32,000 bases of DNA. It comes from Trichodesmium erythraeum IMS101 (lineage in GTDB: Bacteria > Cyanobacteriota > Cyanobacteriia > Cyanobacteriales > Microcoleaceae). Shown piece after piece: positions 5,477-28,646 of this stretch. A model generated the notes under the pieces. It was not told the origin of the DNA. It did no database searches and saw only the letters and a program-made list of their open reading frames with translations. Both the position numbers and the translations under genes were made by a program. The first letter of the stretch is position 1, and every line of letters starts with the position of its first letter. The stretch covers positions 570,001-602,000 of the forward strand of contig NC_008312.1 of the NCBI RefSeq assembly GCF_000014265.1. The letters are read 5' to 3'.

Positions 5477-6270
5477 CTAGTCTAGTTGAATATTTGTTAC
5501 TCTTGCCATTCCCCAAAAAATTAAATCAGGTGCATCTATAACTATTGCAGCTAGTTGAGGAAACAGGGTTGTGAAATGAGTAAATAGTATGGAGTGATCC
5601 CCTCCAGTAAATACTATTTTACTTTCAGGAAATTCTTCCAACCAAGATACAACGTAATTTTTCATACCTGCCAATATAGTGTAAATGACTCCACTTTGAA
5701 TTGCTATTCCTGTTTCTTTTGCCCACCGAGTGGGTAACTCTACAGGTATATCAGTTAATGGTAACATAGCTGTTCCCTTTGCTAAGGATGATAACTGTAA
5801 TCTTAGCCCTGGTAAAATAGCTCCTCCCATTATTTTTTTTTTGCATTGGCACCAGTAAAGGTCATTGCCGTACCAGTATCTATAACTAGTATAGGCCAAC
5901 CAAAGTTTGTACCTGCACCTAACACTGCCAAAGCTCTATCTATTCCTAGAGTAGGATAAAGTCCTTGCAACGGTAACTTATTCAGGGTAATCATATCGGA
6001 ATCAGGATAAGTTTGCCAAAGTGCTGTTTGCTCAGGAACTACTGATGCTATTAATAAAGGTATCCTATGATTCAAGTTTATGTTCTTAGTTTCTAATATA
6101 TTTTTGAGGCTTTTTTCTATTCCCTTTTCCTCATTTATATGAGATTTAATTTCTATTTGTTGAAGATGATTAGCATCCCAAGTATTCTGAATTATTTTAT
6201 CAGTAAAATAACCAAAATGTAACCGGGAATTTCCAATCATTAGACCTAACCATTTTTTACTTTCAGGCAT
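5477..6270 (-). pseudogene. coaX: Type III pantothenate kinase (CoaX) interrupted by a frameshift in an A10 tract
   Basis: Two overlapping ORFs (5830..6270 and 5477..5899) together give a full CoaX: GNSRLHFG, LGIDRA, VIDTGTAMTF, then GGAILPGLRL...TA.LP, GIAIQSG, TGG. They are offset by one frame at the homopolymer 5833..5842 (T10 on plus, A10 on the coding strand). One extra A would give ...TGANAKKKIMGGAILPG..., matching the family. Confidence 0.8.
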
Positions 6271-13691: not shown

Positions 13692-15479
13692 GTGTTTGAG
13701 AAATTTTCCCAGGAAAGGTGGCTAATTTTGCCCATATTTCTAACTGTTTTGGGGAGCCCTGTTAAAGTGTCTGCTCATCCGGTCTTGATTTCTAGTCAAG
13801 ATCCAGAAATAGCTAGGACTTTCTGGCTATCTCGGACTAATACTAGCTCTTTGGCTCAAGTTCCTGCTCCCATTCCTCCTAAAACTCCGGAACCCCCTCT
13901 TCCTAAATTTCCTATTCAGCTAGAGTCTCCCCAACTTGATATTACTCCACCCGGAGCTTCAGAGAATGAATTAGAAAACTCTGAACCTTATCTACGGGTG
14001 AAGATTAATAAGTTTGAATTTGTCGGTTACACGGCATTTACCAAGGAAGAATTAGAGGAGGTGGTTAAACCTTTTACTGAGCGACCTATTACCTTTGCTG
14101 AACTCCTCCAAGCTGAGAAAGCGGTGACTGATAAATACGTTCAGGCCGGTTATATCAATTCCGGAGCCGTAATCTTAGCTGGACAAAATCTCAAGGATGG
14201 GGTAGTAAAGATAAAGATTATTGAAGGGGAAATAGAAGATATTCAGGTAACCGTAACAGGACGCTTGAACCCCAACTATGTCCGTAGCCGGTTAGCTCTA
14301 GCTACGGAAAAGCCCTTTGATCAGAATAAGTTACTTCGGGCTCTCCAATTATTACAGCTTGACCCCCTAATAGCTATTATTAAAGCAGAGGTATCAGCTG
14401 GACCCCTTCCCCAATCTAGTTTGCTGACTGTCAGTGTTACCCAGGCAGACTCTTTTAGTATTGAATCTTTTGCTAACAATAGTCGCGCTCCTAATGTGGG
14501 CAGCTTTCAACGGGGTCTTCGGTTAAAGCAGGGAAATTTATTGGGTTTTGGTGATGGACTAAACGCGAGCTATACAAATTCTGACGGTAGTAACAATTTT
14601 AGTTTTAACTACACTATTCCGTTTAATGCCCGCAATGGTACGATTCAACTTACTACAGAATTAACTGATACTCGTGTAGTTGAATCTCCTTTCGATGACC
14701 TTGATATTATGGGAGAGTCCCAATACTACGAACTGACAGTGCGCCAACCTATTATCCAATTTCCTACCCAAGAATTGGCTCTGGGTTTAACTTTTTATCG
14801 ACAAAACCGTGAGAGTGAACTATTGGGAGAACCTTTTCCTCTATCTCCTGGTGCTAATGAGAAGGGGGAAACACGAATCTCGGCGATTCGACTTTTCCAA
14901 GATTGGGTTAAACGGAATCAGGCAGAAGTATTTGCTGTTCGTTCTCAATTTAGTTTGGGAGTGGGGGCTTTCAATGCTACCATTAATGATGACCTCCCCG
15001 ATAGTCGCTTTTTTAGTTGGCGAGGACAAGGACAGTATGTGCGACGTTTAGCTAAGAATTCGGATTCTTTGCTGGTGGTGCGCACAAATATCCAGTTGGC
15101 TGATAGAGGTTTGTTACCTGTAGAACAGTTTCGTATTGGTGGTGTTAATAGTGTTAGGGGTTATCGCCAAGATTTATCGTTTACTGATAATGGACTTTTT
15201 TTAGGCACTGAGGTCCGACTGCCTATTATGCGCTGGGATAATGTAGAGGGAGTTTTGCAGATAGTTCCTTTTGTGGATTTTGGAGTCGGTTGGAACAGTT
15301 CTGATTTGCCTGAACCAGAGCACAATAGTCTGGCAGGAGTCGGTTTTGGGTTACTATGGCAGATGAGCGATCGCCTCAGCGCCCGCTTTGATTGGGGTAT
15401 ACCTTTGATGGACGTTACTTCGGAGGAAAAAACGTTACAGGAAAATGGTCTTTATTTTACCATTGATGCTAAATTTTAG
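13692..15479 (+). CDS. ShlB/FhaC/HecB-family two-partner-secretion outer-membrane transporter (TpsB)
   Basis: GTG start. Signal peptide ...VLGSPVKVSA|HP. POTRA region (RVKINKFEFVGYTAFTKEELEEVVKPF...GYINSGAVIL...VKIKIIEGEIEDI). The C-terminal half is rich in beta-barrel strands (FRIGGVNSVRGY) and ends with a terminal aromatic residue, ...YFTIDAKF. Confidence 0.88.
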   Translation: MFEKFSQERWLILPIFLTVLGSPVKVSAHPVLISSQDPEIARTFWLSRTNTSSLAQVPAPIPPKTPEPPLPKFPIQLESPQLDITPPGASENELENSEPYLRVKINKFEFVGYTAFTKEELEEVVKPFTERPITFAELLQAEKAVTDKYVQAGYINSGAVILAGQNLKDGVVKIKIIEGEIEDIQVTVTGRLNPNYVRSRLALATEKPFDQNKLLRALQLLQLDPLIAIIKAEVSAGPLPQSSLLTVSVTQADSFSIESFANNSRAPNVGSFQRGLRLKQGNLLGFGDGLNASYTNSDGSNNFSFNYTIPFNARNGTIQLTTELTDTRVVESPFDDLDIMGESQYYELTVRQPIIQFPTQELALGLTFYRQNRESELLGEPFPLSPGANEKGETRISAIRLFQDWVKRNQAEVFAVRSQFSLGVGAFNATINDDLPDSRFFSWRGQGQYVRRLAKNSDSLLVVRTNIQLADRGLLPVEQFRIGGVNSVRGYRQDLSFTDNGLFLGTEVRLPIMRWDNVEGVLQIVPFVDFGVGWNSSDLPEPEHNSLAGVGFGLLWQMSDRLSARFDWGIPLMDVTSEEKTLQENGLYFTIDAKF

Positions 15480-15491
15480 AGGGATAAAATT

Positions 15492-18400
15492 ATGGACAAA
15501 TTTCGATGTCAGCCTAAATTAAGTGCTTTTGTTGCTTTGGCCTTTTCTTTGTCGCCAATTGTTGCGACTGCCCAAATTGTTCCTGATGACACTTTGGGTA
15601 AGGAGAGTTCGGTGGTGGTTCCTGATAATATTAAAGGTATTCCCAGTGAACGTCTGGAAGGAGGGGCAATTCGTGATGGTAATCTGTTCCACAGTTTCGG
15701 AGAATTTAATGTTGGGGAGGGACAAGGAGCTTATTTTGCTAATCCTGCTTTGATTGAGAATATATTCACCAGGGTGACTGGGACTAATGTGTCTAACCTT
15801 CTGGGAACTTTGGGAGTGTTGGGTAATGCTAACCTATTTCTGATTAATCCCAACGGCGTTATTTTTGGTCCTAATGCTAGCTTAGATTTGCAGGGGTCTT
15901 TTGTAGTTAGTAGCGCTGAGAGTTTTGTTTTCAACAATTTTGAGTTTAGTGCCTCTAATCCCCAAGCACCACCTTTATTGACGATAAATATTCCCCTGGG
16001 TTTGCGGTTTCAAGAGAATCCGGGACCGATAAGTGCTAGGGCTACTAGTGAGCTTAAGGTAGGACCAAGGCAAACTTTGGGGCTGTTGGGGGGTGAAGTT
16101 AGGTTGGATGGTACTGTCATTGAATCTCCGGGAACTCAAGTAGAGTTGGGGAGTCTCGCTGTTCCTGGGGTAGTGGAACTAAATGAGGATTTAAGTTTCA
16201 TTTTTCCTGAAGGGGCGGCGCGAGGGGATATATTTTTAGGGAATGAGGCGGTAATTAATGTCCGTAGTGGAGGGGGTGGAAGTATAACTATCAAGGCCCA
16301 GAATGTAGATGTTGTGGGCGGAAGTGAACTTCTGGCAGGAATAAGTGAAGGGTTAGGCTCCCCTGAAGCTCAGGGAGGTGATATTGAGATTAATGCTACT
16401 GGTAGAATTAATTTAGCTGATAACAGCTTGATTGATAATGAGGTCGAAGAAAATGCTGTGGGCAACAGTGGTAATATTAAAATTAAGACTGGTGCACTTT
16501 CAGTTAATAATGGCTCAATTATAGGTACTACCATCTCCGGAGAAGGAACTGCTGGCAGTGTGACTATTGAAGCGAGTGACGCTGTAGTCTTGGATGGAGT
16601 AAGAGACTTAGACATTTTAACTGGAGTAAGTAGCAGTGTGGAAGAAGGAGCAGAAGGGAATGGAGGGGTTATCACTATTACCACCGGCTCTCTGGAAGTT
16701 AAAAATGGTGCTGAGATACTTTCCATTAACTGGGGTAAAGGAAATGCAGGGACTGTGAATATTAATGCTACTGAGACTGTCGTCTTGGATGGAGGAAACT
16801 CAGAATTTTCCACTGGAATAGCTACCAGTCTGGAAGAAGGAGCAGAAGGGAAAGCAGGGGTTGTCACTATTACCACAGGCTCTCTGGAAGTTAAAAATGG
16901 TGCTATAATAGATTCCCTTACTTTGGGTAAAGGAGACGCAGGGGCTGTGAATATTAATGCTACTGAGACTGTCGTCTTGGATGGAGAAAACTCAGAATTT
17001 GCTACTGGAGTAAATAGCGATGCGGATCCAGGATCAGAAGGGAATGCAGGGGGTGTTACTATTACCACAGGCTCTCTGGAAGTTAAAAATGGTGCTGTGA
17101 TAGGTGCCGTTACCTTTAGTAAAGGAGATGCAGGGACTGTGAATATTAATGCTACTGAGACTGTCGTCTTGGATGGAGGAGACTCAGAAATTTTAACTGG
17201 AGTAAATAGCAGTGTAGCACCAGGAGCAGAAGGGAATGCAGGGGGTGTTACTATTACCACCGGCTCTCTGGAAGTTAAAAATGGTGCTGTGATAGGTGCC
17301 GTTACCTTTAGTAAAGGAGATGCAGGGACTGTGAATATTAATGCTACTGAGACTGTCGTCTTGGATAGAGGAGACTCAGAATTTTTAACTGTAGTAGCTA
17401 GCAGTGTAGCACCAGGAGCAGAAGGGAAGGCAGGGGGTGTTACTATTACCACCGGCTCTCTGGAAGTTAAAAATGGTGCAGAGATAGAAGCCAGTACCTT
17501 TAGTAAAGGAGATGCAGGGACTGTGAATATTAACGCTACTGAGACTGTAGTCTTGGATGGAGAAAACTCAGAAATTTTGACTGGAGTAACTAGCAGTGTG
17601 GAAGAAGGAGCAGAAGGGAAGGCAGGGGGTGTTACGGTTACCACCGGCTCTCTGGAAGTTAAAAATGGTGCTCAGCTACTTGCCGTTACCTTTGGTAAAG
17701 GAGATGCAGGGACTGTGAATATTAATGCTACTGAGACTGTAATCTTGGATGGAGGAGACTCAGAAATTTTAACTGTAGTGGCTAGCGGTGTAGCACAAGG
17801 AGCAGAAGGGAATGCAGGGGGTGTTACTATTACTACCGGCTCTCTGGAAGTTAAAAATGGTGCTGGGATAGCTGCCGATACTCTTCCTGAGTCCACAGGG
17901 AATGGTAGCGACATCTCCATTGACGCCACCAAAGTTACTATCACCAATAGCTCTGAAATAGTTGTAAGCAGCGCAGGACAGGGCAACAGTGGTAATATAT
18001 TCCTCAGTGCTGGGGACCTCTTCCTTGATCGTGGTTCTAAAGTCTCTGCCATTACTGCTAGTGGCCAAGGAGGTAACATGACTTTCAATATTGCCAATCT
18101 CTTCAGCTTGCGAAACAACAGTCCCATCTCAACTACGGCAGGAGGGACAGGTAATGGTGGAAACATCAACCTATCGACTGAATTTTTCCTCGCCAGAGAC
18201 GACAGCGACATCACTGCCAATGCTTTTGAAGGCAACGGTGGCAATATATCGATTGCAACTCAAGGTATTTTTAGCTTCCCTAATAGCACCATTGATGCTA
18301 GCTCACAACTAGGAATTGATGGAGTTATCGAAATCAATACCCCTGATATTGATCCTAGTCAGGGATTAATTAAGTTGTCAGAAAACGTGGTAGATCCTGA

Positions 18401-18713
18401 CCAATTGATTGCCCAAAATCCATGCCTACAGGGAGAAGAAAGCGAATATATCATCACGGGGCGAGGGGGTTTGTCTCCCAGTCCTGCTCAAACCCTAAAC
18501 AGCGACCCCTTAGAAGTGGGATTAGTGGAAGCAGCCACAGGGACGGCAGCCACTGTTACCCCACCGCCACCACCGACTTCTACTGCCCAAATTGTTCCCG
18601 CCAAAGGGTGGAAACTTAATGAAAAAGGTGAGGTGATCTTAGTGAGTTACGACCCCACTAATACCCAGGTTCAAAAGCACAGAGCTAATCCTGCTACCTG
18701 TCAGCCTCGCTGA
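15492..18713 (+). CDS. Filamentous-haemagglutinin-like TpsA exoprotein (TPS domain plus beta-helical repeats)
   Basis: Signal peptide ...SPIVATA|QIVP. TPS-domain motifs are GNLFHSFGEFNV and ANLFLINPNGVIFG. It is Gly/Asn/Thr/Val-rich, with seven 64-aa tandem units. The C-terminal tail reads NPC-LQGEESEYIITGRGGLSPSP...PPPPP...ATCQPR. It starts 12 nt after the TpsB stop, with AGAGGG 8 nt upstream. Confidence 0.9.
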   Translation: MDKFRCQPKLSAFVALAFSLSPIVATAQIVPDDTLGKESSVVVPDNIKGIPSERLEGGAIRDGNLFHSFGEFNVGEGQGAYFANPALIENIFTRVTGTNVSNLLGTLGVLGNANLFLINPNGVIFGPNASLDLQGSFVVSSAESFVFNNFEFSASNPQAPPLLTINIPLGLRFQENPGPISARATSELKVGPRQTLGLLGGEVRLDGTVIESPGTQVELGSLAVPGVVELNEDLSFIFPEGAARGDIFLGNEAVINVRSGGGGSITIKAQNVDVVGGSELLAGISEGLGSPEAQGGDIEINATGRINLADNSLIDNEVEENAVGNSGNIKIKTGALSVNNGSIIGTTISGEGTAGSVTIEASDAVVLDGVRDLDILTGVSSSVEEGAEGNGGVITITTGSLEVKNGAEILSINWGKGNAGTVNINATETVVLDGGNSEFSTGIATSLEEGAEGKAGVVTITTGSLEVKNGAIIDSLTLGKGDAGAVNINATETVVLDGENSEFATGVNSDADPGSEGNAGGVTITTGSLEVKNGAVIGAVTFSKGDAGTVNINATETVVLDGGDSEILTGVNSSVAPGAEGNAGGVTITTGSLEVKNGAVIGAVTFSKGDAGTVNINATETVVLDRGDSEFLTVVASSVAPGAEGKAGGVTITTGSLEVKNGAEIEASTFSKGDAGTVNINATETVVLDGENSEILTGVTSSVEEGAEGKAGGVTVTTGSLEVKNGAQLLAVTFGKGDAGTVNINATETVILDGGDSEILTVVASGVAQGAEGNAGGVTITTGSLEVKNGAGIAADTLPESTGNGSDISIDATKVTITNSSEIVVSSAGQGNSGNIFLSAGDLFLDRGSKVSAITASGQGGNMTFNIANLFSLRNNSPISTTAGGTGNGGNINLSTEFFLARDDSDITANAFEGNGGNISIATQGIFSFPNSTIDASSQLGIDGVIEINTPDIDPSQGLIKLSENVVDPDQLIAQNPCLQGEESEYIITGRGGLSPSPAQTLNSDPLEVGLVEAATGTAATVTPPPPPTSTAQIVPAKGWKLNEKGEVILVSYDPTNTQVQKHRANPATCQPR
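16548..17891 (+). repeat. Seven in-frame tandem repeats of 192 bp (64 aa) inside the TpsA gene
   Basis: Unit starts are at 16548, 16740, 16932, 17124, 17316, 17508 and 17700, an exact 192-bp period. The consensus is G(D/N)AGTVNINATETVVLDGG.SE..TGV.S.V..GAEG.AGGVTITTGSLEVKNGA.I....F.K. Units at 17124 and 17316 differ at only about 6 nucleotide positions. Further degenerate units flank the array. Confidence 0.9.
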
Positions 18714-18748: not shown

Positions 18749-21631
18749 ATGAAGCCCAAAAATACCCCAAATAATTGGAAATTCCTTAAAACACTAATTA
18801 ACCAACGGCATTTCCTCCAAAGTCTGCTGTTGTTAATTTTATTTTTCATAGGCCTAGCAATTCCCCCAGTGGTTGCTCAGATGAGCCCCCAAACTCCCAT
18901 ATTCCAAATTCAACCTGATAGCTTCAGCCTGGAAAAACAGGCTAGAAGCCTCTATCAAACCAGAAACTTTCCTGAAGCCGCCAGATTTTGGGAACAAGCG
19001 GTAGTCGCCTTTGCTAAACAAGGGGATCAACTCAACCATGCCATGGCACTAAGCAACCTTTCCCTAACTCGTCAACAACTTCGAGAGTGGGAATTAGCAC
19101 AAAAGGCTATTGACGAAAGCCTAAATATCCTACAAACCCTAGAAAAAACACCAGAAACACAGCGCATCCTCGCTCAAACCCTGGATATTCAAGGAAAGCA
19201 GTTGCGGGAGGTAGAAAAGCCGGAAAAAGCTCTAGAAACTTGGCAACAAGCTGCTGACCTGTATCGGGAAATTGACAGACCAGAAGCAGCCGCCCAGAAT
19301 GAGTTTAACCAAATTCAGGTACTCCAAGACTTAGGACTTTATCCCCGCGCTTGCAAGAGTTTATTATCAATAATAGAGCTGAATGTTCAAAATTGTCAAG
19401 CATTAAGGAAATTAACCCCAGAAGATTTAAAGCAACAACTCCAAGTATTTGCTCAACGCCCCGCTTCCTTACTCGAAGTCCAGAAATTGCGAAATCTCGG
19501 TGATGTACTGCGAGTTTTAGGTCAGCCAACTAACTCGGAAGTTCTATTAGAAGCTAGTTTGGAGGGAGCTAAACAATTAGAACCTTTCCCAAGCAAAAAC
19601 GCCGAAATTGCTGCTATCTATCTCAGCTTAGGCAATACCGCTCGTGTCCAAGGCAAAAATGACAATGCTAGAGAAGCTTTAACATTCTACCAAGAGGCAG
19701 TTAAAGCAGCTACTGAGTCAGGAACAGCTACCCTCATAATTCAAGCTCAACTCAATGAACTGAGTCTGTTGGTGAAAAAGCAGTCCTGGCCTCAAGTGCC
19801 AGATTTGGTGTCTCAAATTGAACCCCAATTAAATAATTTGCCTCCTAGTCGCGCCGCTATTAATGCCCGACTTAATTTCGCCCAAAGCCTATTCTGCTGG
19901 AAAGAGCCAACCCTCAGTCAGGAAGAACGTCAACTCTCATCTCCTATTATTGAGCAGTGCAGTTTAGCCAGGGATAGAGAGAAAAATAATCAACTTCAGC
20001 CCTCAGATGTTCCGAAATGGGAAGATATTGCCGAAATAGTTACTACCGCTGTCAAGCAGTCTCAAACCTTGGGCAACAAGAGAGCAGAGGCTTATGCTCT
20101 CGGTTATCAGGGCAGCGTTGAGCAACAAATGGAAAAATTTTCAGAAGCTCAAGATTTAACCATAAAAGCTCTGAACATATCATCATCTTTCCAGTTGCCA
20201 GACATTGCCTATCTCTGGCAGTGGCAACTGGGGCGCTTGCGGGAAATTCAGGGAGAGGAAGATGACGCGATCGCTGCTTATAATACCGCCTTTGCCACCC
20301 TTCAGTCCCTGCGGGGAGACTTAGTTTCTATTGATCAGGAAGTTCAATTTACTTTTCGCGACAGTGTAGAACCTGTCTATCGAGAATATGTCGATTTACT
20401 CTTGCGAGGGGAAGATATCTCTCAAGACAACCTTAAACGAGCTCGTGAGGTGATTGAAGCCCTGCAACTAGCTGAACTGAATGACTTTTTTGGCAATGCT
20501 TGTTTGGAAGCAAAACCCAAGAAAATTGACACAGTGATTAAAGAAACTTCCTCCCCAACAGCATTCTTCTACGCAGTTATTTTGAAAGACCGTTTAGAAG
20601 TAATTTTGGCTTTATCAGGAGGCAAAGAATTACAACATTACCATACTAACAAATCTCAAGATGAAGTTAAAGCAATCAAAAAAACAATAAAAGACCTACG
20701 CACATTTCTCTCCAATAAGACGACGGCTTTGGAAGATGTGAAAAAACAATCCCATAAAATATATGATTGGCTAATCAAGAAAGCTCAAAAACAACTAGAA
20801 ACAAATGGGATCCAGACCTTGGTTTTTGTTCTAGATAGTCCATTACGTAATATTCCTATGGCAGTTCTATACAATATCGAAACTGAGCGATATTTGGTAG
20901 AAGACTACGCCATCGCCTTCACCCCAGGCCTGCAACTTTTGAGTCCTCAACCTGTCAAACAATTTCGCTTAAATGGGTTAACAGGAGGTGTGAGCGAAGA
21001 GCGAGAAACTGAGTCAATAAATTTTGGTAGAACGAAACCACAAGATTTTACTGAAATTCCCTTTGTCAAGGAGGAATTAAAAAAAATTCGCTCAGTAATA
21101 TCTAGTTCAACAGAAACTCTATTGAATGAGAAATTTCTTAAAGAGCGACTGCAAAATGAACTCAATTCAGCTAACTTCAACACCGTTCACCTATCAACTC
21201 ACGGCAAATTTAGTTCTAATATAGAAGACACCTATCTTTTAGCTTGGAATGAACTACTCAAAATGGAAGATTTAGAAAACTTGTTCCAAATTAAACTGGC
21301 TAATCAGTCAATTCCCATTGAATTACTCGTCCTGAGTGCTTGCCAAACAGCCAAAGGCGATGAGCGAGCAATATTGGGAATGGCTGGGGTAGCAGTGAAA
21401 GCGGGTGCCCGTAGCACACTAGCCACCTTGTGGCCAGTCTTTGATGAATCCACGGCCGAATTCATGTTCTTATTTTATCAGCAGTTAATCCAGAACCAGG
21501 CTCAAAATATGACCAAAGCTGAAGCACTTCGTCAAGCTCAACTAAAATTATGGGCTCAGAAAAAACCAGGAAAACGGTGGAATCACCCCTATTATTGGGC
21601 TCCCTTTATTTTGCTAGGTAATTGGCTATAA
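18749..21631 (+). CDS. Exported TPR-repeat / CHAT-domain (caspase-fold) protease
   Basis: N-terminal signal or anchor LLLLILFFIGLAIPPVVAQ|M. About 500 aa of TPR-like helical repeats follow. The C-terminal CHAT domain has an intact dyad: H818 in VHLSTHGKF (21200..21202) and C865 in LVLSACQTA (21341..21343), ending HPYYWAPFILLGNW. GAGGA lies 6 nt upstream, and the gene starts 35 nt after the TpsA stop. Confidence 0.88.
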   Translation: MKPKNTPNNWKFLKTLINQRHFLQSLLLLILFFIGLAIPPVVAQMSPQTPIFQIQPDSFSLEKQARSLYQTRNFPEAARFWEQAVVAFAKQGDQLNHAMALSNLSLTRQQLREWELAQKAIDESLNILQTLEKTPETQRILAQTLDIQGKQLREVEKPEKALETWQQAADLYREIDRPEAAAQNEFNQIQVLQDLGLYPRACKSLLSIIELNVQNCQALRKLTPEDLKQQLQVFAQRPASLLEVQKLRNLGDVLRVLGQPTNSEVLLEASLEGAKQLEPFPSKNAEIAAIYLSLGNTARVQGKNDNAREALTFYQEAVKAATESGTATLIIQAQLNELSLLVKKQSWPQVPDLVSQIEPQLNNLPPSRAAINARLNFAQSLFCWKEPTLSQEERQLSSPIIEQCSLARDREKNNQLQPSDVPKWEDIAEIVTTAVKQSQTLGNKRAEAYALGYQGSVEQQMEKFSEAQDLTIKALNISSSFQLPDIAYLWQWQLGRLREIQGEEDDAIAAYNTAFATLQSLRGDLVSIDQEVQFTFRDSVEPVYREYVDLLLRGEDISQDNLKRAREVIEALQLAELNDFFGNACLEAKPKKIDTVIKETSSPTAFFYAVILKDRLEVILALSGGKELQHYHTNKSQDEVKAIKKTIKDLRTFLSNKTTALEDVKKQSHKIYDWLIKKAQKQLETNGIQTLVFVLDSPLRNIPMAVLYNIETERYLVEDYAIAFTPGLQLLSPQPVKQFRLNGLTGGVSEERETESINFGRTKPQDFTEIPFVKEELKKIRSVISSSTETLLNEKFLKERLQNELNSANFNTVHLSTHGKFSSNIEDTYLLAWNELLKMEDLENLFQIKLANQSIPIELLVLSACQTAKGDERAILGMAGVAVKAGARSTLATLWPVFDESTAEFMFLFYQQLIQNQAQNMTKAEALRQAQLKLWAQKKPGKRWNHPYYWAPFILLGNWL

Positions 21632-21649: not shown

Positions 21650-22510
21650 TTATTTTTCCGGGATACAACAGGATAATATAGGTTCTTCCGCGAAACTTTC
21701 TAAGCCAGCAGCCTTCAACAACTTCTTCCAGTATCCTTTCAGTTCGGGTTCTTGTGGCTCACGACGGCGGCGTTCAGCTAAATCAGTCAGAGCATCATGC
21801 CAAATACCTTTATTAGCATAGTCACTATAAATCTGGAAATTAGAATTCCCCTTAACCCTTTGCACGTAACCTTCTAGAACAACGTTCGCATCTGTATCTT
21901 CTTGATTACAGAAAACTAGGAATAACCAAAGATAGGGACGTTCAATTTCCAGACTCTTCGGTAAATTATCCGGCAGGGGAATACTGACAATTCCAGGAGT
22001 AGCAGAAAAATTAAAAGTAGTTCGGTAAATATCCCTTTCTCCTTCTTCATCTTGGAGGACAAATTGTCCAGTTTGTACCTCCTGAGAATTGTAAGGAATA
22101 TAAAACCAAAATGTAGGAGAATTGCTAACTGTCAAACCCATGTTTTCCGGGACCAAAGCAGTCATCGGCGGATCTACTTTTGGGCAGTCAGGATTCTTAG
22201 TTCCTCCAGAGGTTCGTGTATTTGGTCTCCCTGTCCCAGAAAAATCGATGTTATCAGAATCGTTTTTTTTATCGGTTTTTTTTTCGCTTAAAAGCTTTAC
22301 CTTAACCGAGTCAGAATTGAGAATTAAGCTAGGTTCCTGTCCCTCCGCTGAGGGAAAATATATAATTAAGCTAGCAACACTCCAAGCAATAGTGAAAGCA
22401 GCAAAAGAAAACCCTAACAAAACTAATTTATTTTGATTCATTACTCCTAATCCTATATTTATGTAACTTACAGCAATTCCCGTTGTTATTATATACACCA
22501 ACGGGAGCAA
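21650..22510 (-). CDS. DUF928-domain exported protein (likely true start at 22441)
   Basis: Family-typical core: GTGRPNTRTSGGTKNPDC...MTALVPENMGLTVSNSPTFWFYIP...FVLQDE...PGIVSIPLP...YLWLFLVFCN...LEGYVQRV. The internal Met at 22441 (MNQNKLVLLGFSFAAFTIAWSVASL) gives a clean signal peptide and follows AGGAG. Its stop is 18 bp from the convergent CHAT stop. Confidence 0.8.
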   Translation of the reverse strand: MLPLVYIITTGIAVSYINIGLGVMNQNKLVLLGFSFAAFTIAWSVASLIIYFPSAEGQEPSLILNSDSVKVKLLSEKKTDKKNDSDNIDFSGTGRPNTRTSGGTKNPDCPKVDPPMTALVPENMGLTVSNSPTFWFYIPYNSQEVQTGQFVLQDEEGERDIYRTTFNFSATPGIVSIPLPDNLPKSLEIERPYLWLFLVFCNQEDTDANVVLEGYVQRVKGNSNFQIYSDYANKGIWHDALTDLAERRRREPQEPELKGYWKKLLKAAGLESFAEEPILSCCIPEK

Positions 22511-22555: not shown

Positions 22556-24907
22556 TTACAGAAACATGGTGTCATTAATTGTTTTATTAGAGAAAATTAT
22601 CGCTATCCCAGTTAAAAAGAAACCTAGTATCGAGGGAACCAGTGGCAGCCATCCGCCAATTTCTATAAAAACTAAAAAGCAGATTCCCCATAACGTAACA
22701 GGTACTGCTACTACAGTTATCCCAATGAACCACCTTCCAAAAACTTGCCTGCTCCAACAAATACCCAGTATTCCTCCTATAAAAGACCAACCCCAAACCC
22801 AAATATTTTCTAAGGCCTGCGGCCACCACCACAAAAGTGTTCGCCCATCTAAGACAGCACTGAGAATCTGACTGATCATGTGACCATGAATCATTATTCC
22901 TGGTATCTTCTTATTATAGGGAGTCAAATGCATATCTTCATAACCAACCTCAGCAGCATCAGTCCCAATGAGAACAATTTTGTTCTTGACCAGATGGGCG
23001 AGTTTAGAGTCACGGGATCCATCAAGTAATTCCTTAAGAGTCATCGTTTCCGCAATTTTCTCAGAAGAACGGTAATTGAGAAGAATTTGATAACCTAGTG
23101 CTTCCCTTTTAGGCAAATGATATCCCCCAGCATCCTTCTCTAATTTATGGAAAAGGACCTCATTAATTTTTAAGTTACCTTGATTAAATTCTCCTGCTCT
23201 CTTTTCCATGCCTTTTTCTTTTAGATAACGAATTGCTATCCTCAGACTAAAAGAATAACTTGAACAAAGGGAGTTTTCAGGAATTGACATCCCCAACAAC
23301 TGACGTCGAATAACGCCACCAGAGTCTTGAGGAAAATCAGCAAAACCTATTCGTTGTTTTTCTTGAATTTCAGGAGGAGGTTCTATGCCAATACTATTAT
23401 TTTTTTCTTCCTTAATTTTACATACAGCGATCAAGCTTTTATTCTGGGCGAGCTGAGTTTTTAAATGTTCATCTTTAGCAGGAAAATCTCGAAAGATATC
23501 TAGACCGATAACTAGAGGTTTATAGGTATTTAATTTGTCTAAAACTTTAATAATTGCTTGGTCTGATAGTGATTCTCCTCCTATTTCCCACCCCATTTCC
23601 TTTTGATATTTAATATCTTCTGGAGTAACTGTAACAATTAGCAAGCGTTTATCTGGACCTTCATCTCTCCTCCATCTTATCATCTGATCGAAAGCCTGTA
23701 GTTTGAATTGTTGTACTCTCTCTGGAGGCTTTGTTACTAAAGTAGTTATGAATATGCTTATTAGCAGTACAATAGACAGAATAGTATATGATTTTAATAT
23801 TTTAAAAAAATTTTGTTGATATTTGCCTTGATTTATCTCTCTTTTCAGGTTAATGTTTGGTAATTCTTTAAAGATTATTTCAGGCTCTTCTTGGGCAATT
23901 CCTAATTTATTTTTTGGTTTTTCTATTTGATATTTACACTTAAATAAATTCTCTTTAGATTCATTTCTCCTAAACTGTAACTTTGGCTCTAGTTGAGTTT
24001 TTGCTAAAACAATATCATAAGCTTCTCCATGTAAAATGTGGATTTCTGGTTTCATACCACCGCCATATTTGAATTTGGGGATATTCTCTTTAACATATTT
24101 CGGTATATTAACTTCCAAAAACTTATAAAAAGAGTCAACTGTTACTTTTCCTTCTTCGTTAGCAGCATCACCATTTAAAGCTAATTGAGCATAGTAAGTA
24201 AAGATAGAAAGATCAGACTGATTTTCCATAAAATATGATTTTTGATCCCCTGCTGAAGAAGTAATAATTACTAATCCTTCTTTTTGTTTAATTTCAACTG
24301 AATTATCCGAACTTATTCCCTTAGATATGGCTTGATATCTTTGTTTTTGATTTAACAACTGTTGAATTAGTAAATTCTCTGCTGAATCATTTTTACCTTT
24401 ACTGTATCCTCGAACAAAAGCGCCTGAATAACATAAATCTAACAGCCATACTTGAGAATTAGAAGTACAATTTTTTATTTGTCGGTGGAAATAACTTGCT
24501 TCAATAGCTCCTGTAATTATTTCTGTATCCCTATCATAACTTGTCTCAGAAGTTGCGATATAAAAAGTTCCTTCTGCATCTGTAATACCGTGACTTGAAA
24601 CATAAATAAGTAAAGTATCTGATTTTTGAGACTCGTAAAAAAACTTGTTGATGGCATATTCCATGTCTTTTCTATCAAGATTTTCCTCCTGGATAACTTC
24701 AAACCCACCCTTTTCTTCCAAGCATTTTTTCATAACTTGAACGTCTTCTAGTGTTGGGGAGAAGTTATCTAATCCTTCACCAAATATTGTTATTCCAATT
24801 AATAAAGCACGTCTTCGTTCCATAACTTGTTGATGACATATTCCCTGTATTTTTTTATCAAGATTTTCATTCTTGATAACTTCAAATACCCCCCTTTTTT
24901 TTAGCAT
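22556..24907 (-). CDS. Peptidase-C14 caspase domain (N-terminal, cytoplasmic) fused to a CHASE2 transmembrane sensor; alternative start at 24823
   Basis: The caspase core is RRALLIGI...LLIYVSSHGI (H106, 24590..24592) ... WLLDLCYSGAF (C159, 24431..24433). TM1 is at about aa 366-392. The CHASE2-like periplasmic region begins RLLIVTVTPEDI...LVIGLDIFRDFPA. Three C-terminal TM helices follow, and the protein ends about 15 aa later with no C-terminal output domain. Residues 1-28 derive from a decayed duplicate, so Met29 (MERRRALLIG) may be the real start. Confidence 0.85.
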   Translation of the reverse strand: MLKKRGVFEVIKNENLDKKIQGICHQQVMERRRALLIGITIFGEGLDNFSPTLEDVQVMKKCLEEKGGFEVIQEENLDRKDMEYAINKFFYESQKSDTLLIYVSSHGITDAEGTFYIATSETSYDRDTEIITGAIEASYFHRQIKNCTSNSQVWLLDLCYSGAFVRGYSKGKNDSAENLLIQQLLNQKQRYQAISKGISSDNSVEIKQKEGLVIITSSAGDQKSYFMENQSDLSIFTYYAQLALNGDAANEEGKVTVDSFYKFLEVNIPKYVKENIPKFKYGGGMKPEIHILHGEAYDIVLAKTQLEPKLQFRRNESKENLFKCKYQIEKPKNKLGIAQEEPEIIFKELPNINLKREINQGKYQQNFFKILKSYTILSIVLLISIFITTLVTKPPERVQQFKLQAFDQMIRWRRDEGPDKRLLIVTVTPEDIKYQKEMGWEIGGESLSDQAIIKVLDKLNTYKPLVIGLDIFRDFPAKDEHLKTQLAQNKSLIAVCKIKEEKNNSIGIEPPPEIQEKQRIGFADFPQDSGGVIRRQLLGMSIPENSLCSSYSFSLRIAIRYLKEKGMEKRAGEFNQGNLKINEVLFHKLEKDAGGYHLPKREALGYQILLNYRSSEKIAETMTLKELLDGSRDSKLAHLVKNKIVLIGTDAAEVGYEDMHLTPYNKKIPGIMIHGHMISQILSAVLDGRTLLWWWPQALENIWVWGWSFIGGILGICWSRQVFGRWFIGITVVAVPVTLWGICFLVFIEIGGWLPLVPSILGFFLTGIAIIFSNKTINDTMFL

Positions 24908-25006
24908 TTATTGATAACTTAAATTTCTTCCAGTGTGGGGGGGGAAGTTATCTAATTCTTCACAAAATGTTATTATTCAAATTAATAAAGCACGTCTTCC
25001 TTCCAT
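24824..25006 (-). pseudogene. Decayed upstream copy of a 183-bp tandem duplication of the caspase gene 5' end
   Basis: The minus strand from 25006 reads ATGGAAGGAAGACGTGCTTTATTAATTTGA..., against the functional copy from 24823, ATGGAACGAAGACGTGCTTTATTAATTGGA... The similarity continues for the full 183 bp (to ..ATCAACAAGTT). The upstream copy has a TGA at codon 10 and compensating single-nt indels at C8 and A8/G6 runs. Confidence 0.8.
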
Positions 25007-25023: not shown

Positions 25024-25416
25024 TTAGATCATATTCTTAACTTCATGTAGTAAAGTATAAAACTCTTTATCAGAACAATTTTGTCTTTCTGCTTGAAAAA
25101 TTAAAGTACCATCTTCTCTGAAAAATTGTACTTTATACTTTCCATTTGTTTTTTCATCTACTAAACTCATTGACCGAGTGATTCTCTCTTCTTCTGCTTC
25201 TAATTCTAGCTCTATAATTCCTGGTAAGTAACCTCCCCCTTTATTTGGTTCAGATGAATTTGATTCAGGCTCAAGAATGCGTTTTACTTTTTCAATCACA
25301 TTCAAAAGTTTTAGCTGTTTCATTTGTTTCAAAAGCTTTATTGTTTCTGTCTCTAGTCTATTTGAATCAATATGTATCAGAGTTATAATAAGTTTAACAT
25401 TTGAAATATTATTCAT
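25024..25416 (-). CDS. Hypothetical 130-aa soluble protein (possible adaptor; weak resemblance to EACC1-type components)
   Basis: The ORF sits between the WD40 gene and the caspase-CHASE2 gene on the same strand. Its stop is 17 nt upstream of the ancestral caspase ATG (25006). It has no TM segment or signal peptide. The charged central segment is EPESNSSEPNKGGGYLPGIIELELEAEEE and the C-terminal region is beta-rich (KYKVQFFREDGTLIFQAER). Confidence 0.6.
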   Translation of the reverse strand: MNNISNVKLIITLIHIDSNRLETETIKLLKQMKQLKLLNVIEKVKRILEPESNSSEPNKGGGYLPGIIELELEAEEERITRSMSLVDEKTNGKYKVQFFREDGTLIFQAERQNCSDKEFYTLLHEVKNMI

Positions 25417-25538
25417 TAAGCTATATTTAATAAATTGAGTTTTTAAGTAAGATTTATGATAACATATTTATGGCAATAAAATCAACGAAAAATTCCCCCT
25501 TATGGCAAGGCTTTAGAGCTGATTTTTTTATTAATCTA

Positions 25539-26810
25539 TTACTGATTAATACTCGAAGGTTTCCAAGTACAAATATTTCCTTGGCTATTGCTACTAAGTA
25601 ATCTTTGAGAATGTTGACTAAATACAAGGCACTGAGTATAATTTGGATATGTCTCCAAAGTTTGTATAACATTGCTTTCACGCCAATTATGAATCTTAAT
25701 AGTCTGACTGTAACTAGCACTAGCCAGAGTTTGACTATCTGGACTAAAAGCCAATGAAAGAACTGCTTTTGAATGTTTCTCTAACTTTTTTATGAAAGTT
25801 CCCGAATTGAGATTCCAAAGATAAATCTCACCATCTTTCCCTCCACTAGCCACAACTTCATTATTTGGACTAATTGCTAGAGAAGTTACCCAATCTGAAT
25901 GTTGTTCTAAACTTTCTGATTCTGGAAAAGATATCCAATCTTCATAGTACTGATGAGGTTGATTATCTTTAGAAGGTACTCCCCAAGAATAAACCTTGCC
26001 ATCTTTTCCCCCGCTAACTAGCATGCCACCATTTGGGCTCATAGCTAAACACATAACTCCATCTTTATGCTTAGACAAACAACCTACTTGTTTTATTTCT
26101 TTAGGCAAAGACCAAACCTTAATTTGCTCACTCTCATAGGAATTAATAAATAAATACTCTCCATTTGGACTCAGAGACATAGATTCAATAGCATAAGGAT
26201 TAGACCCCAATTCTTTTTGATGCAAAGTCCATTTAACTTCTTGCGTCTGTAAATTCCAAATTTTTATTTTTTCGTCATAACTGCCACTAATTAATTCTTC
26301 CTCTGAACTGAAAACAAGACATGAAACATCTTTTTCATGAGCTTTTAATGAACATTTCACTTTTCGTTTCTGTAAATCCCAAATTTTTATTTCTCCGTCA
26401 TAACTCCCGCTAGCAAGAGTGTTTCCATTTGGACTCAGAGCTATACTGCCAACACTATTTGCATGACCTGTGAGAGTATATTCATTTTCAAGTAATGTAT
26501 TTTCCCAAGGATTTGAGACAAACTCATATTGATCTATTCCCAACGACTTCCAATCAGTTACTTTTCTCCAATCAATATCAATAGCTTGGCATAAGGCAAT
26601 GTAACCTTTAACTTCGATTGGCTTTTTGCTCTTAAATCGCTTCAATGTTGATACAGAAGTAACCCGTGCTTTATTATCAATGTGATTAGTAGCTTTTTCA
26701 AGCCAATCTAAATCATTCCAACTTGGATTATTTTTTTTTATTCTTGCAATATTATTTTTAATAATTTCCAACCCTTGTTCAGACAATTGTAAAGAACGCG
26801 GCCAACCCAT
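25539..26810 (-). CDS. HTH-like N-terminal domain plus seven-bladed WD40 repeat protein
   Basis: The N-terminus (LSEQGLEIIKNNI...VTSVSTLKRFKSKKPIEVKGYIALCQAIDIDWRKV) resembles the HTH-like module common at the N-termini of cyanobacterial WD40/STAND proteins. Seven WD40 units follow (for example LTGHANSVGSIALSPNGNTLASGSYDGEIKIWDL and LEQHSDWVTSLAISPNNEVVASGGKDGEIYLWNL). There is no NTPase domain between them. Confidence 0.85.
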   Translation of the reverse strand: MGWPRSLQLSEQGLEIIKNNIARIKKNNPSWNDLDWLEKATNHIDNKARVTSVSTLKRFKSKKPIEVKGYIALCQAIDIDWRKVTDWKSLGIDQYEFVSNPWENTLLENEYTLTGHANSVGSIALSPNGNTLASGSYDGEIKIWDLQKRKVKCSLKAHEKDVSCLVFSSEEELISGSYDEKIKIWNLQTQEVKWTLHQKELGSNPYAIESMSLSPNGEYLFINSYESEQIKVWSLPKEIKQVGCLSKHKDGVMCLAMSPNGGMLVSGGKDGKVYSWGVPSKDNQPHQYYEDWISFPESESLEQHSDWVTSLAISPNNEVVASGGKDGEIYLWNLNSGTFIKKLEKHSKAVLSLAFSPDSQTLASASYSQTIKIHNWRESNVIQTLETYPNYTQCLVFSQHSQRLLSSNSQGNICTWKPSSINQ

Positions 26811-27335
26811 AATTTTATCCTTTTACTTTCTTTATTGAGGTTAATTTTAGCCTCTTTAAGTATATTTGGGAAAAAAATCTATTGGACTATGGAGAGGGCA
26901 ATTTGATGCTCAAGCACCAGGGCAAGCTAGACTATCATTCCAGACAACACGGACACAACCTAGGTCACCTTGCTAATCGGTGTTTTTGTCCTAATTTGGA
27001 TATATACAGTACTTAAATCTTGCTTTCATAGAATGACTTTGAAACTAAAAAGCATAATCACATAAACATAACCAGTGGAAAAAAAATAAACTAAAAATTA
27101 ACCCGCTTATGGGCGAGGCTTGAAACCCAATTTTTCAGTAAATTATAACTTCGCTCTGACCTAAAAAGCTTGTATGGAGGGTCTCTACCTAACTCCTAAG
27201 TTCTGAATTCTACTCTCACCCATAAGACTTATTCAGTAAGCCCTATTTAGCTTTTTTTTTAACAAATAGTCTCTAATAAATAGTTAGGTTCAATTCATAA
27301 AAATATGCTGATCATATTCCATGTATTGAGACAAG

Positions 27336-27396
27336 TTCAGTAATGGTTCAGTTAAAGTTCAGTAATGGTTCAGTTGAAATTCAGTAATGGTTCAGT
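27336..27396 (+). promoter_or_regulatory. Phased array of six direct TTCAGT hexamers at exact 11-bp spacing (three 22-bp units)
   Basis: TTCAGT occurs at 27336, 27347, 27358, 27369, 27380 and 27391. The 22-bp unit is (A/G)GTTCAGTAATGGTTCAGTT(A/G)A, repeated three times over 27334..27399. The array lies 162 nt upstream of the sigma-factor ATG, in the divergent intergenic region shared with the WD40 operon. Confidence 0.6.
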
Positions 27397-27557
27397 TGAT
27401 ATACATCTACTAGAAAAATCAACTAAATTTAGTCAAAAATTGACCCTCAACTGCTCTTGTTTTTTAGGGAAAAATCAAGTATTATTAAGCTACTTTAAAA
27501 ATCAGAAAGTCTGGCAATTTTAAAAAAAACTAGTGTATCTAACAATAATTTTTTGTA

Positions 27558-28646
27558 ATGTTAAACGAACAGAAAACAACTAGAAATATTGATTCACTAT
27601 TTTGGCTAGAATGGCAAAAGCATCAAGAGTATCTCTACCGTTGCTGTGTCAAATGGATGGGAGGTAATTCTACAAATGCTGAGGATGCTTTAAGTATGGC
27701 CATGCTCAAGGCTAGGGAAAAAATACAACAGTCTTCCAGAAGAATTGAGAACTTAAAACCTTGGCTGGCTAAACTAACCTATAACCTTTGTATGGATCTA
27801 CTGAAGGAGTCTGCTCGATATAATCAAGGGGTTGAGGATCTAGACTTGGTTATTTCTGGCGCTGATGGGAGCACTCAAGGAGGAGATCCATTTTTTGTTG
27901 TTGCCTACGAAGAACTAAAAGATTTTTGTAACTTGGCCATTGATGATTTGCCAAAGAGACTACGAGAAACTTTTGTTCTCCTTTATCAGAAACAATTCTC
28001 TTCTCAAGAAATAGCTGCAGAGTTGAATATTTCTGACTCTAATGTCCGTAAGCGTATTTCCCGGGGGCGGGCTATTTTGGAAAAAAGGCGCCAGAAAGAG
28101 TACGAAAAACAAGAAGAAATAGTTATTGTGGAGAATCAAAAAATAGAAAGTTCCCAACCTCAAGAGTTGGATACAGAAATTGTTACTGCTGAGATACCCC
28201 AAGAGACTATTTTATCTGAAGAGAAAAGTGAGCCTATTTTAGTTGAGGCCACGGTTGAGGAGGAGTTACGGGAAATAGAGACTTTTGGCAATGGAGGACA
28301 GCAGCTCTTTGCTCTATCTGTATTGTTGAAATTACTTAGGGTAGAGAATAAAAAGCCCAAGGGTGAGAAACAACAAAAATGTGGTCTACTTAGTAGATGC
28401 ACAAATATAGGACTGGCATTGCTGAGGGGCAGGATGAATATAAGTGGAGTCCGCATCCTGCTAACCCAAAAATATAAGAAACGGCTCAAATGGCTCACCC
28501 ACAAAGTGATAGAGGCTCAACCACATTATTTATACAATTTTGGCAAGGGGGAACTAAAAGCTTTAGAAAAACAGTTGAATTGGTTAATAATGGAGAATTT
28601 CCTAGGGCCTTCAGCAGCAAAACTGGTATATAAAGACTGCTGCTAG
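27558..28646 (+). CDS. ECF-type sigma-70 family factor with a roughly 185-aa C-terminal extension
   Basis: Region 2 is YLYRCCVKWMGGNSTNAEDALSMAMLKAREKI...KPWLAKLTYNLCMDLLKE. Region 4 HTH is LPKRLRETFVLLYQKQFSSQEIAAELNISDSNVRKRISRGRAILEKR. An acidic linker and a basic, Leu-rich tail ending KDCC follow; neither has a recognisable TM segment or known domain. Confidence 0.75.
   Translation: MLNEQKTTRNIDSLFWLEWQKHQEYLYRCCVKWMGGNSTNAEDALSMAMLKAREKIQQSSRRIENLKPWLAKLTYNLCMDLLKESARYNQGVEDLDLVISGADGSTQGGDPFFVVAYEELKDFCNLAIDDLPKRLRETFVLLYQKQFSSQEIAAELNISDSNVRKRISRGRAILEKRRQKEYEKQEEIVIVENQKIESSQPQELDTEIVTAEIPQETILSEEKSEPILVEATVEEELREIETFGNGGQQLFALSVLLKLLRVENKKPKGEKQQKCGLLSRCTNIGLALLRGRMNISGVRILLTQKYKKRLKWLTHKVIEAQPHYLYNFGKGELKALEKQLNWLIMENFLGPSAAKLVYKDCC

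Follow-up and report, generated by a model that had tools for sequence, protein, structure and literature searches.

The described system that most resembles the locus treated here is the EACC1 system, in which a small constant component is encoded 5' of a caspase carrying diverse further domains (Kaur et al. 2020, eLife, PMC7159879). EACC1 itself consists of a conserved transmembrane helix between short α+β extensions (PMC7159879), and for the K. racemifer protein (KrEACC1) a recent preprint reports that the caspase cuts it near Asp49, just before the hydrophobic segment, yielding an autoinhibitory N-terminal fragment and a C-terminal fragment that permeabilises membranes (Evans et al. 2025, bioRxiv 10.1101/2025.11.14.688446). 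The same preprint also studies Trypco2/Pepco, the second small effector licensed by a protease (bioRxiv 10.1101/2025.11.14.688446). In EACC2 systems, an α+β domain is fused N-terminally to caspase-CHASE2 proteins, and the neighbours are TRADD-N, or an extracytoplasmic function (ECF) sigma factor and DUF1822 (Kaur et al. 2021, eLife, PMC8195603). Here we analyse a stretch of 32,000 nt from Trichodesmium erythraeum IMS101 (NC_008312.1, positions 570,001 to 602,000; called the window below, with all window coordinates counted from its first nucleotide), in which the gene for a protein of 130 aa, Tery_0383, lies upstream of the gene for a caspase-CHASE2 protein, Tery_0382. We hold with moderate confidence that the two form an EACC1-type two-gene protease-partner module that acts by caspase cleavage of the small protein.

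A small-protein gene paired with a caspase gene

Tery_0384, Tery_0383 (25024..25416, annotated as 'hypothetical protein'), Tery_0382 and a DUF928 gene follow one another in this order on the minus strand. A first-pass annotation, made from the DNA alone, had read the first three as co-directional open reading frames (ORFs) of one apparent operon, and this reading stands, positions included, with no terminator-like site predicted between any of the four genes. The gap from Tery_0384 to the small ORF is 122 nt, and that from the small ORF to the caspase gene 116 nt, or 200 nt when counted to the likelier caspase start discussed below. Tery_0383 is a real gene rather than a chance ORF, since it has 21 close, full-length homologs at 59–94% identity, from marine metagenomes and Moorena sp. 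SIO3C2, and a wider family in cyanobacteria, with the frame kept throughout; indels are in frame only, and dozens of Trichodesmium variants, like Moorena, keep the ORF open.

The wider family emerged from profile searches. From 1.84 billion representative proteins, a profile built on the Trichodesmium/Moorena clade retrieved full-length matches of 125–153 aa (E 3e-8 to 5e-4), and a second profile search yielded 56 proteins, in which every named match is cyanobacterial and no Pfam domain is found except in one protein, P0020. The latter (226 aa, encoded on an ENA contig of 1019 nt) is identical to Tery_0383 over its first 77 residues and then continues into SH3 domains; it is probably a chimeric metagenome assembly. 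Profile-profile comparison of the clade with the core cyanobacterial family aligned 119 columns at a probability of 97.4% and an E-value of 1e-11 (hhalign), by which measure the two are homologous. In a scan of one genome per species, which was run with the core-subfamily alignment and whose retained loci are therefore biased towards that subfamily, we found 122 relatives and kept 79 loci, all of them labelled cyanobacterial but for one, a 3-kb contig whose bin bears the label Sphingobacteriaceae. Nostoc, Microcystis, Pseudanabaena and Leptolyngbya are among the genera represented in the family loci. The searches show the small protein to belong to a ~125-aa family, essentially restricted to cyanobacteria, which current Pfam and NCBIfam models miss. 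One relative of unusual architecture, P0026 (379 aa, locus L092, 2254-3393), joins an N-terminal helical region and a TRADD-like_N domain to the small-protein domain, with no caspase gene adjoining on its 5-kb contig; near a Microcystis member, a look for repeats of diversity-generating retroelements found none.

The first-pass annotation had made its view of the small ORF depend on linkage with caspase genes in other genomes, and this linkage is kept: a caspase gene lies directly 3' on the same strand in 82 of 92 family loci, typically after a gap of about 10 nt, in some cases with an overlap of 1 or 11 nt; of the remaining loci, several are at the end of a contig. Across 49 non-redundant downstream proteins the caspase domain begins near residue 5. 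All 45 downstream proteins tested matched Peptidase_C14 and also the NCBIfam model NF047832, 'caspase, EACC1-associated type' (E ≤ 1e-5, best E 3.8e-54), while their C-termini vary widely, with FGE-sulfatase (11 proteins), Peripla_BP_6 (5), TPR (4), CHASE2 (2), GUN4 (2) and EAL (2) domains; one family caspase, in locus L012, ends in a WD40 domain. Of all the evidence this gene context weighs most. We hold with very high confidence that the small protein and the caspase constitute a conserved functional unit.

The caspase of the window is annotated as 'putative Chase2 sensor protein' and occupies a 783-aa ORF on the minus strand (22556..24907; Pfam Peptidase_C14 2e-17, CHASE2 1.4e-58). Its caspase domain, which begins at about residue 3 to 5 and retains an intact catalytic dyad (H78 in SSH78G and C131 in LD129LC131YSG), is followed by a transmembrane helix (346–364), the CHASE2 domain and further transmembrane helices at 694–744. 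Since one transmembrane helix precedes CHASE2, the caspase domain should be cytoplasmic and CHASE2 outward-facing. In IMS101, the interval from the small ORF to the caspase gene is taken up by a decayed 183-nt tandem duplicate of the 5' end of the caspase gene (24824..25006, minus strand), identified by DNA alignment with the Trichodesmium contigs L004 and L005. The first copy contains a stop codon and a frameshift, and the duplicate is specific to IMS101, the relatives having a spacer of 17 nt. The annotated start at 24907 falls inside the duplication scar; the true start is most likely the ATG at 24823, which gives a gene of 22556..24823. Tery_0382 already stands in the catalogue of Trichodesmium metacaspases, or orthocaspases; Jiang et al. 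2010 (PMC2853523) list it as the single one of T. erythraeum IMS101 to carry a CHASE2 domain. The available portions of this and other metacaspase surveys (PMC2853523, PMC5756287, PMC7475262) treat the caspase alone, with no mention in those portions of the small upstream gene.

Relation to EACC1 and to other small protease partners

The pair shares with the EACC1-caspase system a small gene (about 115–130 aa) that lies directly 5' of the caspase gene and is co-directional with it, a 3' product with an N-terminal caspase and a highly variable C-terminus, a caspase subfamily that NCBIfam names as EACC1-associated (the 45 family caspases mentioned above), and a filamentous, multicellular bacterial host. 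To these resemblances of context the small proteins themselves add a weak one. The sole Pfam family to recur among 43 of them is EACC1 (PF19953), matched by 11 of the 43 below its gathering score of 23.6 bits, with a best E-value of 6e-4; four matching members that we inspected scored 15.7–19.4 bits and spanned most of the profile, for example positions 3–104 of 107. The Pfam model is weak for divergent members, because KrEACC1 itself reaches just 28.2 bits.

A further likeness is one of architecture. An AlphaFold2 (AF2) model of Tery_0383, built with a 44-sequence alignment (mean predicted local distance difference test score, pLDDT, 85; predicted template-modelling score, pTM, 0.79), comprises a strand (6–13), a helix (18–37), a strand (43–48), a loop (49–62), a strand (63–73), a helix (76–90), a hairpin (94–110) and a final helix (116–129). 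The predicted fold is accordingly a split α+β arrangement, strand-helix-strand and strand-helix-hairpin-helix joined by a disordered loop. As in EACC1, α+β elements at both ends enclose a middle segment, which an exposed site immediately precedes. The loop (codons 49–62, 25231..25272, minus strand), at the junction of strands 2 and 3, has a block mean pLDDT of 51, falling below 50 at residues 57–60, and contains the best-conserved residues outside the core: N58 is found in 37, K59 in 43 and G61 in 43 of the 44 sequences, compared with 44 of 44 for G66, and Tery_0383 has the full K59-G60-G61. As this conserved motif sits in a disordered loop just before the equivalent of the EACC1 hydrophobic helix, we infer by analogy that the N-K-G-G loop is a candidate protease cleavage site. 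In the two EACC1 sequences compared, the loop reads T-Q-D, in contrast to the lysine found here.

Several observations weigh against kinship of Tery_0383 with EACC1, or against a working module in IMS101. Tery_0383 matches no Pfam or NCBIfam family even at E ≤ 10, so that the profile check proposed by the first-pass annotation returned nothing for the 130-aa protein in these two collections. When the family profiles were compared with KrEACC1, taken from the supplement of Evans et al. 2025, and with a second EACC1 from a Streptomyces plasmid, hhalign gave E-values of 0.016–0.12 with only the N-terminal strand-helix-strand in register, and hmmsearch of both EACC1 sequences with the family profiles gave scores no better than those of shuffles. 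Tery_0382 scores 86 bits with NF047832, under its cut-off of 140 bits. The EACC1 hydrophobic helix is absent from Tery_0383, in whose central segment 10 of 26 residues are charged; in IMS101, the duplication scar separates the two genes; and within Trichodesmium the small ORF has an overall ratio of non-synonymous to synonymous substitution rates (dN/dS) of about 1. The direct comparison is one to two sequences deep on the side of EACC1: two metagenome scans for more EACC1 sequences gave no matches, and a plasmid search marginal Ralstonia matches only. Since the direct comparison is non-significant and the EACC1 profile shallow, homology to EACC1 is suggested and not directly shown.

The loss of hydrophobicity deserves separate consideration. 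On the Kyte-Doolittle scale, the central segment of KrEACC1 averages 1.71 and that of the core cyanobacterial family, which is rich in glycine, 1.1–1.3, compared with −0.23 in Tery_0383, where the conserved transmembrane helix of EACC1 is replaced by a charged strand-helix. The first-pass annotation had remarked that the small protein lacks a hydrophobic middle, and this is correct, the maximal 19-residue mean being 0.54. The charged segment is common to Moorena and to the more distant members P0027 and P0028, indicating that the charged state is old and maintained. For the Trichodesmium/Moorena clade a classical pore is doubtful, given that the hydrophobic central segment has been lost.

In sum, the speculative link to EACC-type components made in the first-pass annotation fares well where gene context and the wider family are concerned, with the caspase directly 3', the EACC1-associated caspases and the sub-threshold EACC1 matches of 11 family members, and less well for the protein itself: Tery_0383 reaches the threshold of no EACC1 model, and the family profiles do not detect KrEACC1. 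Gene context and weak profile similarity suggest that the small protein is EACC1-like, and an EACC-type constant component beside a caspase is the best-supported reading of the 130-aa protein.

The same evidence bears on another explanation, namely that the small protein is a cyanobacterium-specific caspase partner, unrelated or merely analogous to EACC1, which serves as a regulator and not as an effector, for example as a pro-domain acting in trans or an inhibitor, which would keep the caspase inactive up to its own cleavage or displacement, or as an adaptor that presents substrates. We regard this as rather unlikely, albeit as an explanation of some weight. It would account for the non-significant direct comparison with studied EACC1, for the soluble nature of the protein, which has no transmembrane helix, and for the greater conservation of the N-terminal half within the Trichodesmium clade. 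The result of a fold search of the AF2 model against the PDB also suits it: the matches were generic ferredoxin-like, PII-like and dimeric α+β-barrel folds at template-modelling scores of about 0.5 or below and E-values above 1e-3, and are uninformative on function. It fits less well with the recurrence of Pfam EACC1 as the only shared weak match, with the assignment of 45 of 45 caspases to the EACC1-associated subfamily, and with a gene order, a protein size and variable caspase C-termini that match the EACC1 system (PMC7159879). A last argument against a mere regulator comes from Nostoc punctiforme, where a known effector occupies the same slot.

On the N. punctiforme plasmid pNPUN01 (locus L093, 1-9075), genes for WD40 and CHAT proteins, a 'trypco2 family protein' of 124 aa, a CHASE2 protein and DUF928 follow one another in this order, an architecture like that of the window, in what looks like the cluster noted by Hu et al. 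2017 (PMC5587647). Read by eye, the GHG and SACQSG motifs suggest that the N-terminus of this CHASE2 protein is CHAT-like. As a different known effector fills the position of Tery_0383 there, this position appears to be a substrate or effector slot. The likeness to the Trypco2/Pepco pairs lies in the slot, a small effector gene directly before a caspase-fold protease-CHASE2 gene with DUF928 after it and WD40 nearby, and in the implied logic of a protease that licenses a small protein, but there is no sequence similarity: neither Tery_0383 nor its 43 relatives matched the Trypco1 or Trypco2 families of Pfam.

It is very improbable, in our estimate, that the small ORF represents an EACC2 domain split off as a separate gene. 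Some features recall EACC2-caspase systems: a caspase with a variable C-terminus that may include CHASE2, an adjoining ECF sigma factor gene, downstream DUF928-like and TPR-CHAT genes, a Fischerella neighbourhood given as 'EACC2+CASPASE+CHASE2 -> TM+beta_rich -> TPRs+CASPASE' (PMC8195603 source data) that resembles the one seen here, and the fusion of TRADD-like_N to the small domain in P0026. However, EACC2 is fused to the caspase, whereas the small domain is a separate gene in Trichodesmium, where the caspase begins at about residue 3, and is fused to a caspase in none of the loci with a downstream caspase gene. Nor did any window ORF that we scanned (most ORFs of at least 100 aa outside the three genes) match DUF1822 or TRADD-N. 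On the Brasilonema plasmid pBOCT2, whose cluster looks, from its translations, like the type of Kaur et al. 2021, we read a sigma-like and a DUF1822-like gene, a CHASE2 protein whose N-terminal region is longer, a DUF928-like gene and a gene of the two-partner secretion (TPS) type; the DUF928-like gene, of 272 aa, and the TPS gene after it were recognised by eye. The N-terminal region of this protease-CHASE2 protein, presumed from its translation to be EACC2, is unlike the small-protein family (hhalign E 0.089).

Variation within Trichodesmium and the proposed mechanism

If the charged segment marked a loss of function, Tery_0383 would be a remnant under relaxed selection, without current function, in a module decaying in Trichodesmium. 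Besides the loss of the hydrophobic segment and the dN/dS of about 1 within the genus, the stop codons in the duplication scar between both genes, the split pantothenate kinase gene elsewhere in the window and the low coding fraction of T. erythraeum (PMC4143802) speak for this. The within-genus ratio should be seen beside those of its surroundings, about 0.7 for all cluster genes within Trichodesmium, and beside the comparison of the small ORF with Moorena, which gives 0.47–0.62. The distribution of the changes is instructive as well: between IMS101 and L002 the N-terminal halves of the small ORF are identical, with 0 non-synonymous differences, and the C-terminal halves differ by 26 non-synonymous and 4 synonymous changes, while L002 and L004 show the reverse pattern. 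Natural Trichodesmium alleles (L002, L004 and P0001–P0019) are mosaics of two N-half and two C-half types joined near residue 74, a pattern that argues for recombination between half-alleles rather than random decay. Together with the frame that stays open in dozens of Trichodesmium variants and Moorena, the lower dN/dS against Moorena, the sharing of the charged segment by Moorena, P0027 and P0028 and the intact caspase dyad, this makes decay an improbable account of the locus.

Returning to the EACC1-type module, we propose that an extracytoplasmic CHASE2 domain would sense a cue and switch on the cytoplasmic caspase domain, which would then cut Tery_0383 in the exposed loop around K59-G-G. 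The cut would separate an inhibitory N-terminal half from an active C-terminal half, as in the studied EACC1 (Evans et al. 2025, preprint). For the majority of cyanobacterial members, the half set free would start with the glycine-rich, moderately hydrophobic segment, which would be compatible with membrane attack. In Trichodesmium and Moorena, where this segment is strongly charged, the fragment would more probably serve as a soluble effector or as a signal than form a classical pore. The WD40 protein Tery_0384 would be an accessory specific to this lineage, which may supply a second input or bind as a partner, and no NTPase would be required. A more specific version of this scheme holds that the Trichodesmium/Moorena clade encodes a soluble EACC1-type derivative whose charged C-terminal half acts in the cytoplasm, perhaps by binding the WD40 propeller, and forms no pore; we put it forward as a special case of low probability.

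The WD40 gene, the surrounding cluster and the meaning of the pair

Tery_0384 (25539..26810, minus strand, 423 aa, annotated as 'WD-40 repeat') was described in the first-pass annotation as a seven-bladed WD40 protein with a helix-turn-helix (HTH)-like N-terminal module. The propeller is confirmed by seven repeats that can be read in the sequence at residues ~106–423 and by a Pfam WD40 match at E 4.9e-59. For residues 1–105, no Pfam family was found even at E ≤ 10, a homolog search returned Trichodesmium fragments only, and the AF2 model, all-helical and built on a shallow alignment, has a pLDDT of 52; given the missing family match and the unreliable model, the HTH-like label is unverified.

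With this protein as ligand sensor, the small protein as adaptor and the caspase as effector, the locus had been interpreted as a minimal apoptosome-like trio that lacks a STAND NTPase (nucleoside triphosphatase). It does resemble the apoptosome and STAND NTPase-WD40-caspase systems in encoding a WD40 propeller and a caspase together, and there is more in favour of the idea: the three genes are co-directional without a predicted terminator between them, the other Trichodesmium contigs (L002-L005) and Moorena share the arrangement WD40, small ORF, caspase, and WD40 domains are fused to family caspases in L012 and L001. In the Moorena sp. SIO3C2 locus L001 (5187-8094), the small ORF lies between two caspase genes, of which the downstream one is cut by the contig end and the upstream one encodes a caspase-WD40 fusion with an active-looking caspase and an orthologous propeller, 46% identical overall to Tery_0384; no caspase remnant was found by tblastn upstream of the Trichodesmium WD40 gene. 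However, a WD40 gene stands directly upstream only in L001-L005 and L073, which belong to Trichodesmium, Moorena and a single Leptolyngbya and are few among the 92 loci, and the genes found upstream elsewhere are a mixed set. What is conserved is thus the pair and not a trio, and Tery_0384 is a lineage-specific neighbour outside the conserved core. Further differences from the apoptosome-like systems are that the locus, in the ORFs scanned, encodes no STAND NTPase, that the small protein resembles none of the death-fold or effector-associated domain (EAD) adaptor families of Pfam, and that Tery_0382 is anchored in the membrane and carries a sensor domain of its own. The N-terminal region of the WD40 protein, moreover, matches no adaptor or HTH family and evolves fast (dN/dS 0.9–1.2). 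The CHASE2 domain fused to the caspase is the likelier sensor compared with the WD40 protein, and we rate the trio as an idea of low probability.

The first-pass annotation was right that an NTPase is missing: the scanned ORFs yielded no match to either a STAND or an AAA NTPase. Its proposal to look for one in orthologous neighbourhoods led to little, as the commonest upstream families, AAA and AAA_5, occur in only 3 of 50 neighbours. Given this frequency, and given that the EACC1 system was described as one of two genes (PMC7159879), the missing NTPase is no anomaly. The two of these three AAA neighbours that we checked belong to iSTAND-MoxR-vWA systems. In the Leptolyngbya loci L067 (1429-12597) and L073 (1674-8884), the small-caspase pair follows a ternary system of iSTAND, MoxR AAA+ and vWA(CoxE) proteins, accompanied by a fourth protein, the C-terminus of which varies (Pilin_GH or WD40); in L067, two small-caspase pairs stand in tandem, and in L073 the WD40 protein lies between the ternary system and the pair, which may be counted in favour of a WD40 role. 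Coupling to an NTPase thus exists, in that the pair has been appended to such a system in these two loci, but it is rare.

In another respect, the Trichodesmium module differs from EACC1 systems: it lies inside a cluster of CHASE2, DUF928, CHAT and TPS genes, with the WD40 gene upstream. Directly downstream of Tery_0382 is the DUF928 gene (21650..22510, minus strand, 286 aa; Pfam DUF928 E 7.2e-51), and convergent with the caspase operon is a gene for a TPR-CHAT protein (18749..21631, plus strand; Pfam CHAT E 5e-55, and TPR), which is also found in the Trichodesmium contig L004. Beside the CHAT gene, on the plus strand, a ShlB/FhaC-type transporter (13692-15479; Pfam ShlB and POTRA_2) and a filamentous-haemagglutinin-like protein with a TPS domain (15492-18713; Pfam TPS) form a two-partner secretion pair (13692..18713). 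The CHASE2-DUF928 order is kept in L004, on pNPUN01 and, with the DUF928-like gene recognised by eye, on pBOCT2, and CHASE2 followed by DUF928, with CHAT and two-partner secretion genes nearby, recurs on Nostocales plasmids. We propose that the module forms part of a cyanobacterial cluster for envelope signalling, made up of CHASE2, DUF928, TPR-CHAT and two-partner secretion components.

Upstream, Tery_0385 (27558..28646, plus strand), an ECF-type sigma factor annotated as sigma-24 (Pfam Sigma70_r2 and r4_2; NCBIfam sigma70-ECF) with a C-terminal extension of ~180 aa, is divergent from the WD40 gene. The 747-nt intergenic region between the two contains a tandem repeat (27333..27397; 22-nt unit, 3.0 copies, 95% matches, Tandem Repeats Finder), which may be a regulatory site or an array for regulator binding. 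A search of the literature and of transcriptome data by the locus tags Tery_0382 to Tery_0385 gave no match.

Farther away, the ORF scan identified a DUF4231-domain protein that also matches DUF6320 weakly (3749-4633, minus strand). The DUF4231 domain class is known from other bacterial conflict systems. A type III pantothenate kinase is spread over two overlapping ORFs (5477-5899 and 5830-6270, minus strand) and is probably a frameshifted gene or a pseudogene. Other scanned ORFs of the window encode an EamA transporter, an SLH protein, BamE-like and PyrF/PyrE-like proteins and MiaB. Near the end of the window, the translations of two minus-strand ORFs, 30982-31248 and 31771-31995, both contain near-identical peptide runs (…LAQTKLPLLSNLA…), a sign that DNA is repeated here at a distance of about 790 nt.

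As drivers of the abrupt collapse of Trichodesmium blooms, caspase homologs are the leading candidates, and we know of no substrate for any Trichodesmium caspase homolog. The already catalogued Tery_0382 is now tied to a conserved, unannotated partner, which is probably its substrate. Should the Trichodesmium/Moorena branch indeed encode a soluble derivative, Tery_0383 would be the first defined substrate and provide a non-lytic output for one of the bloom-collapse metacaspases of Trichodesmium, and the recombining half-alleles would reflect ongoing conflict or kin discrimination. Beyond this organism, a widespread cyanobacterial family of small caspase partners has been defined, which probably extends the EACC1 class of protease-effector systems; if its charged branch is functional, such protease-licensed effectors would not be limited to pore formation.

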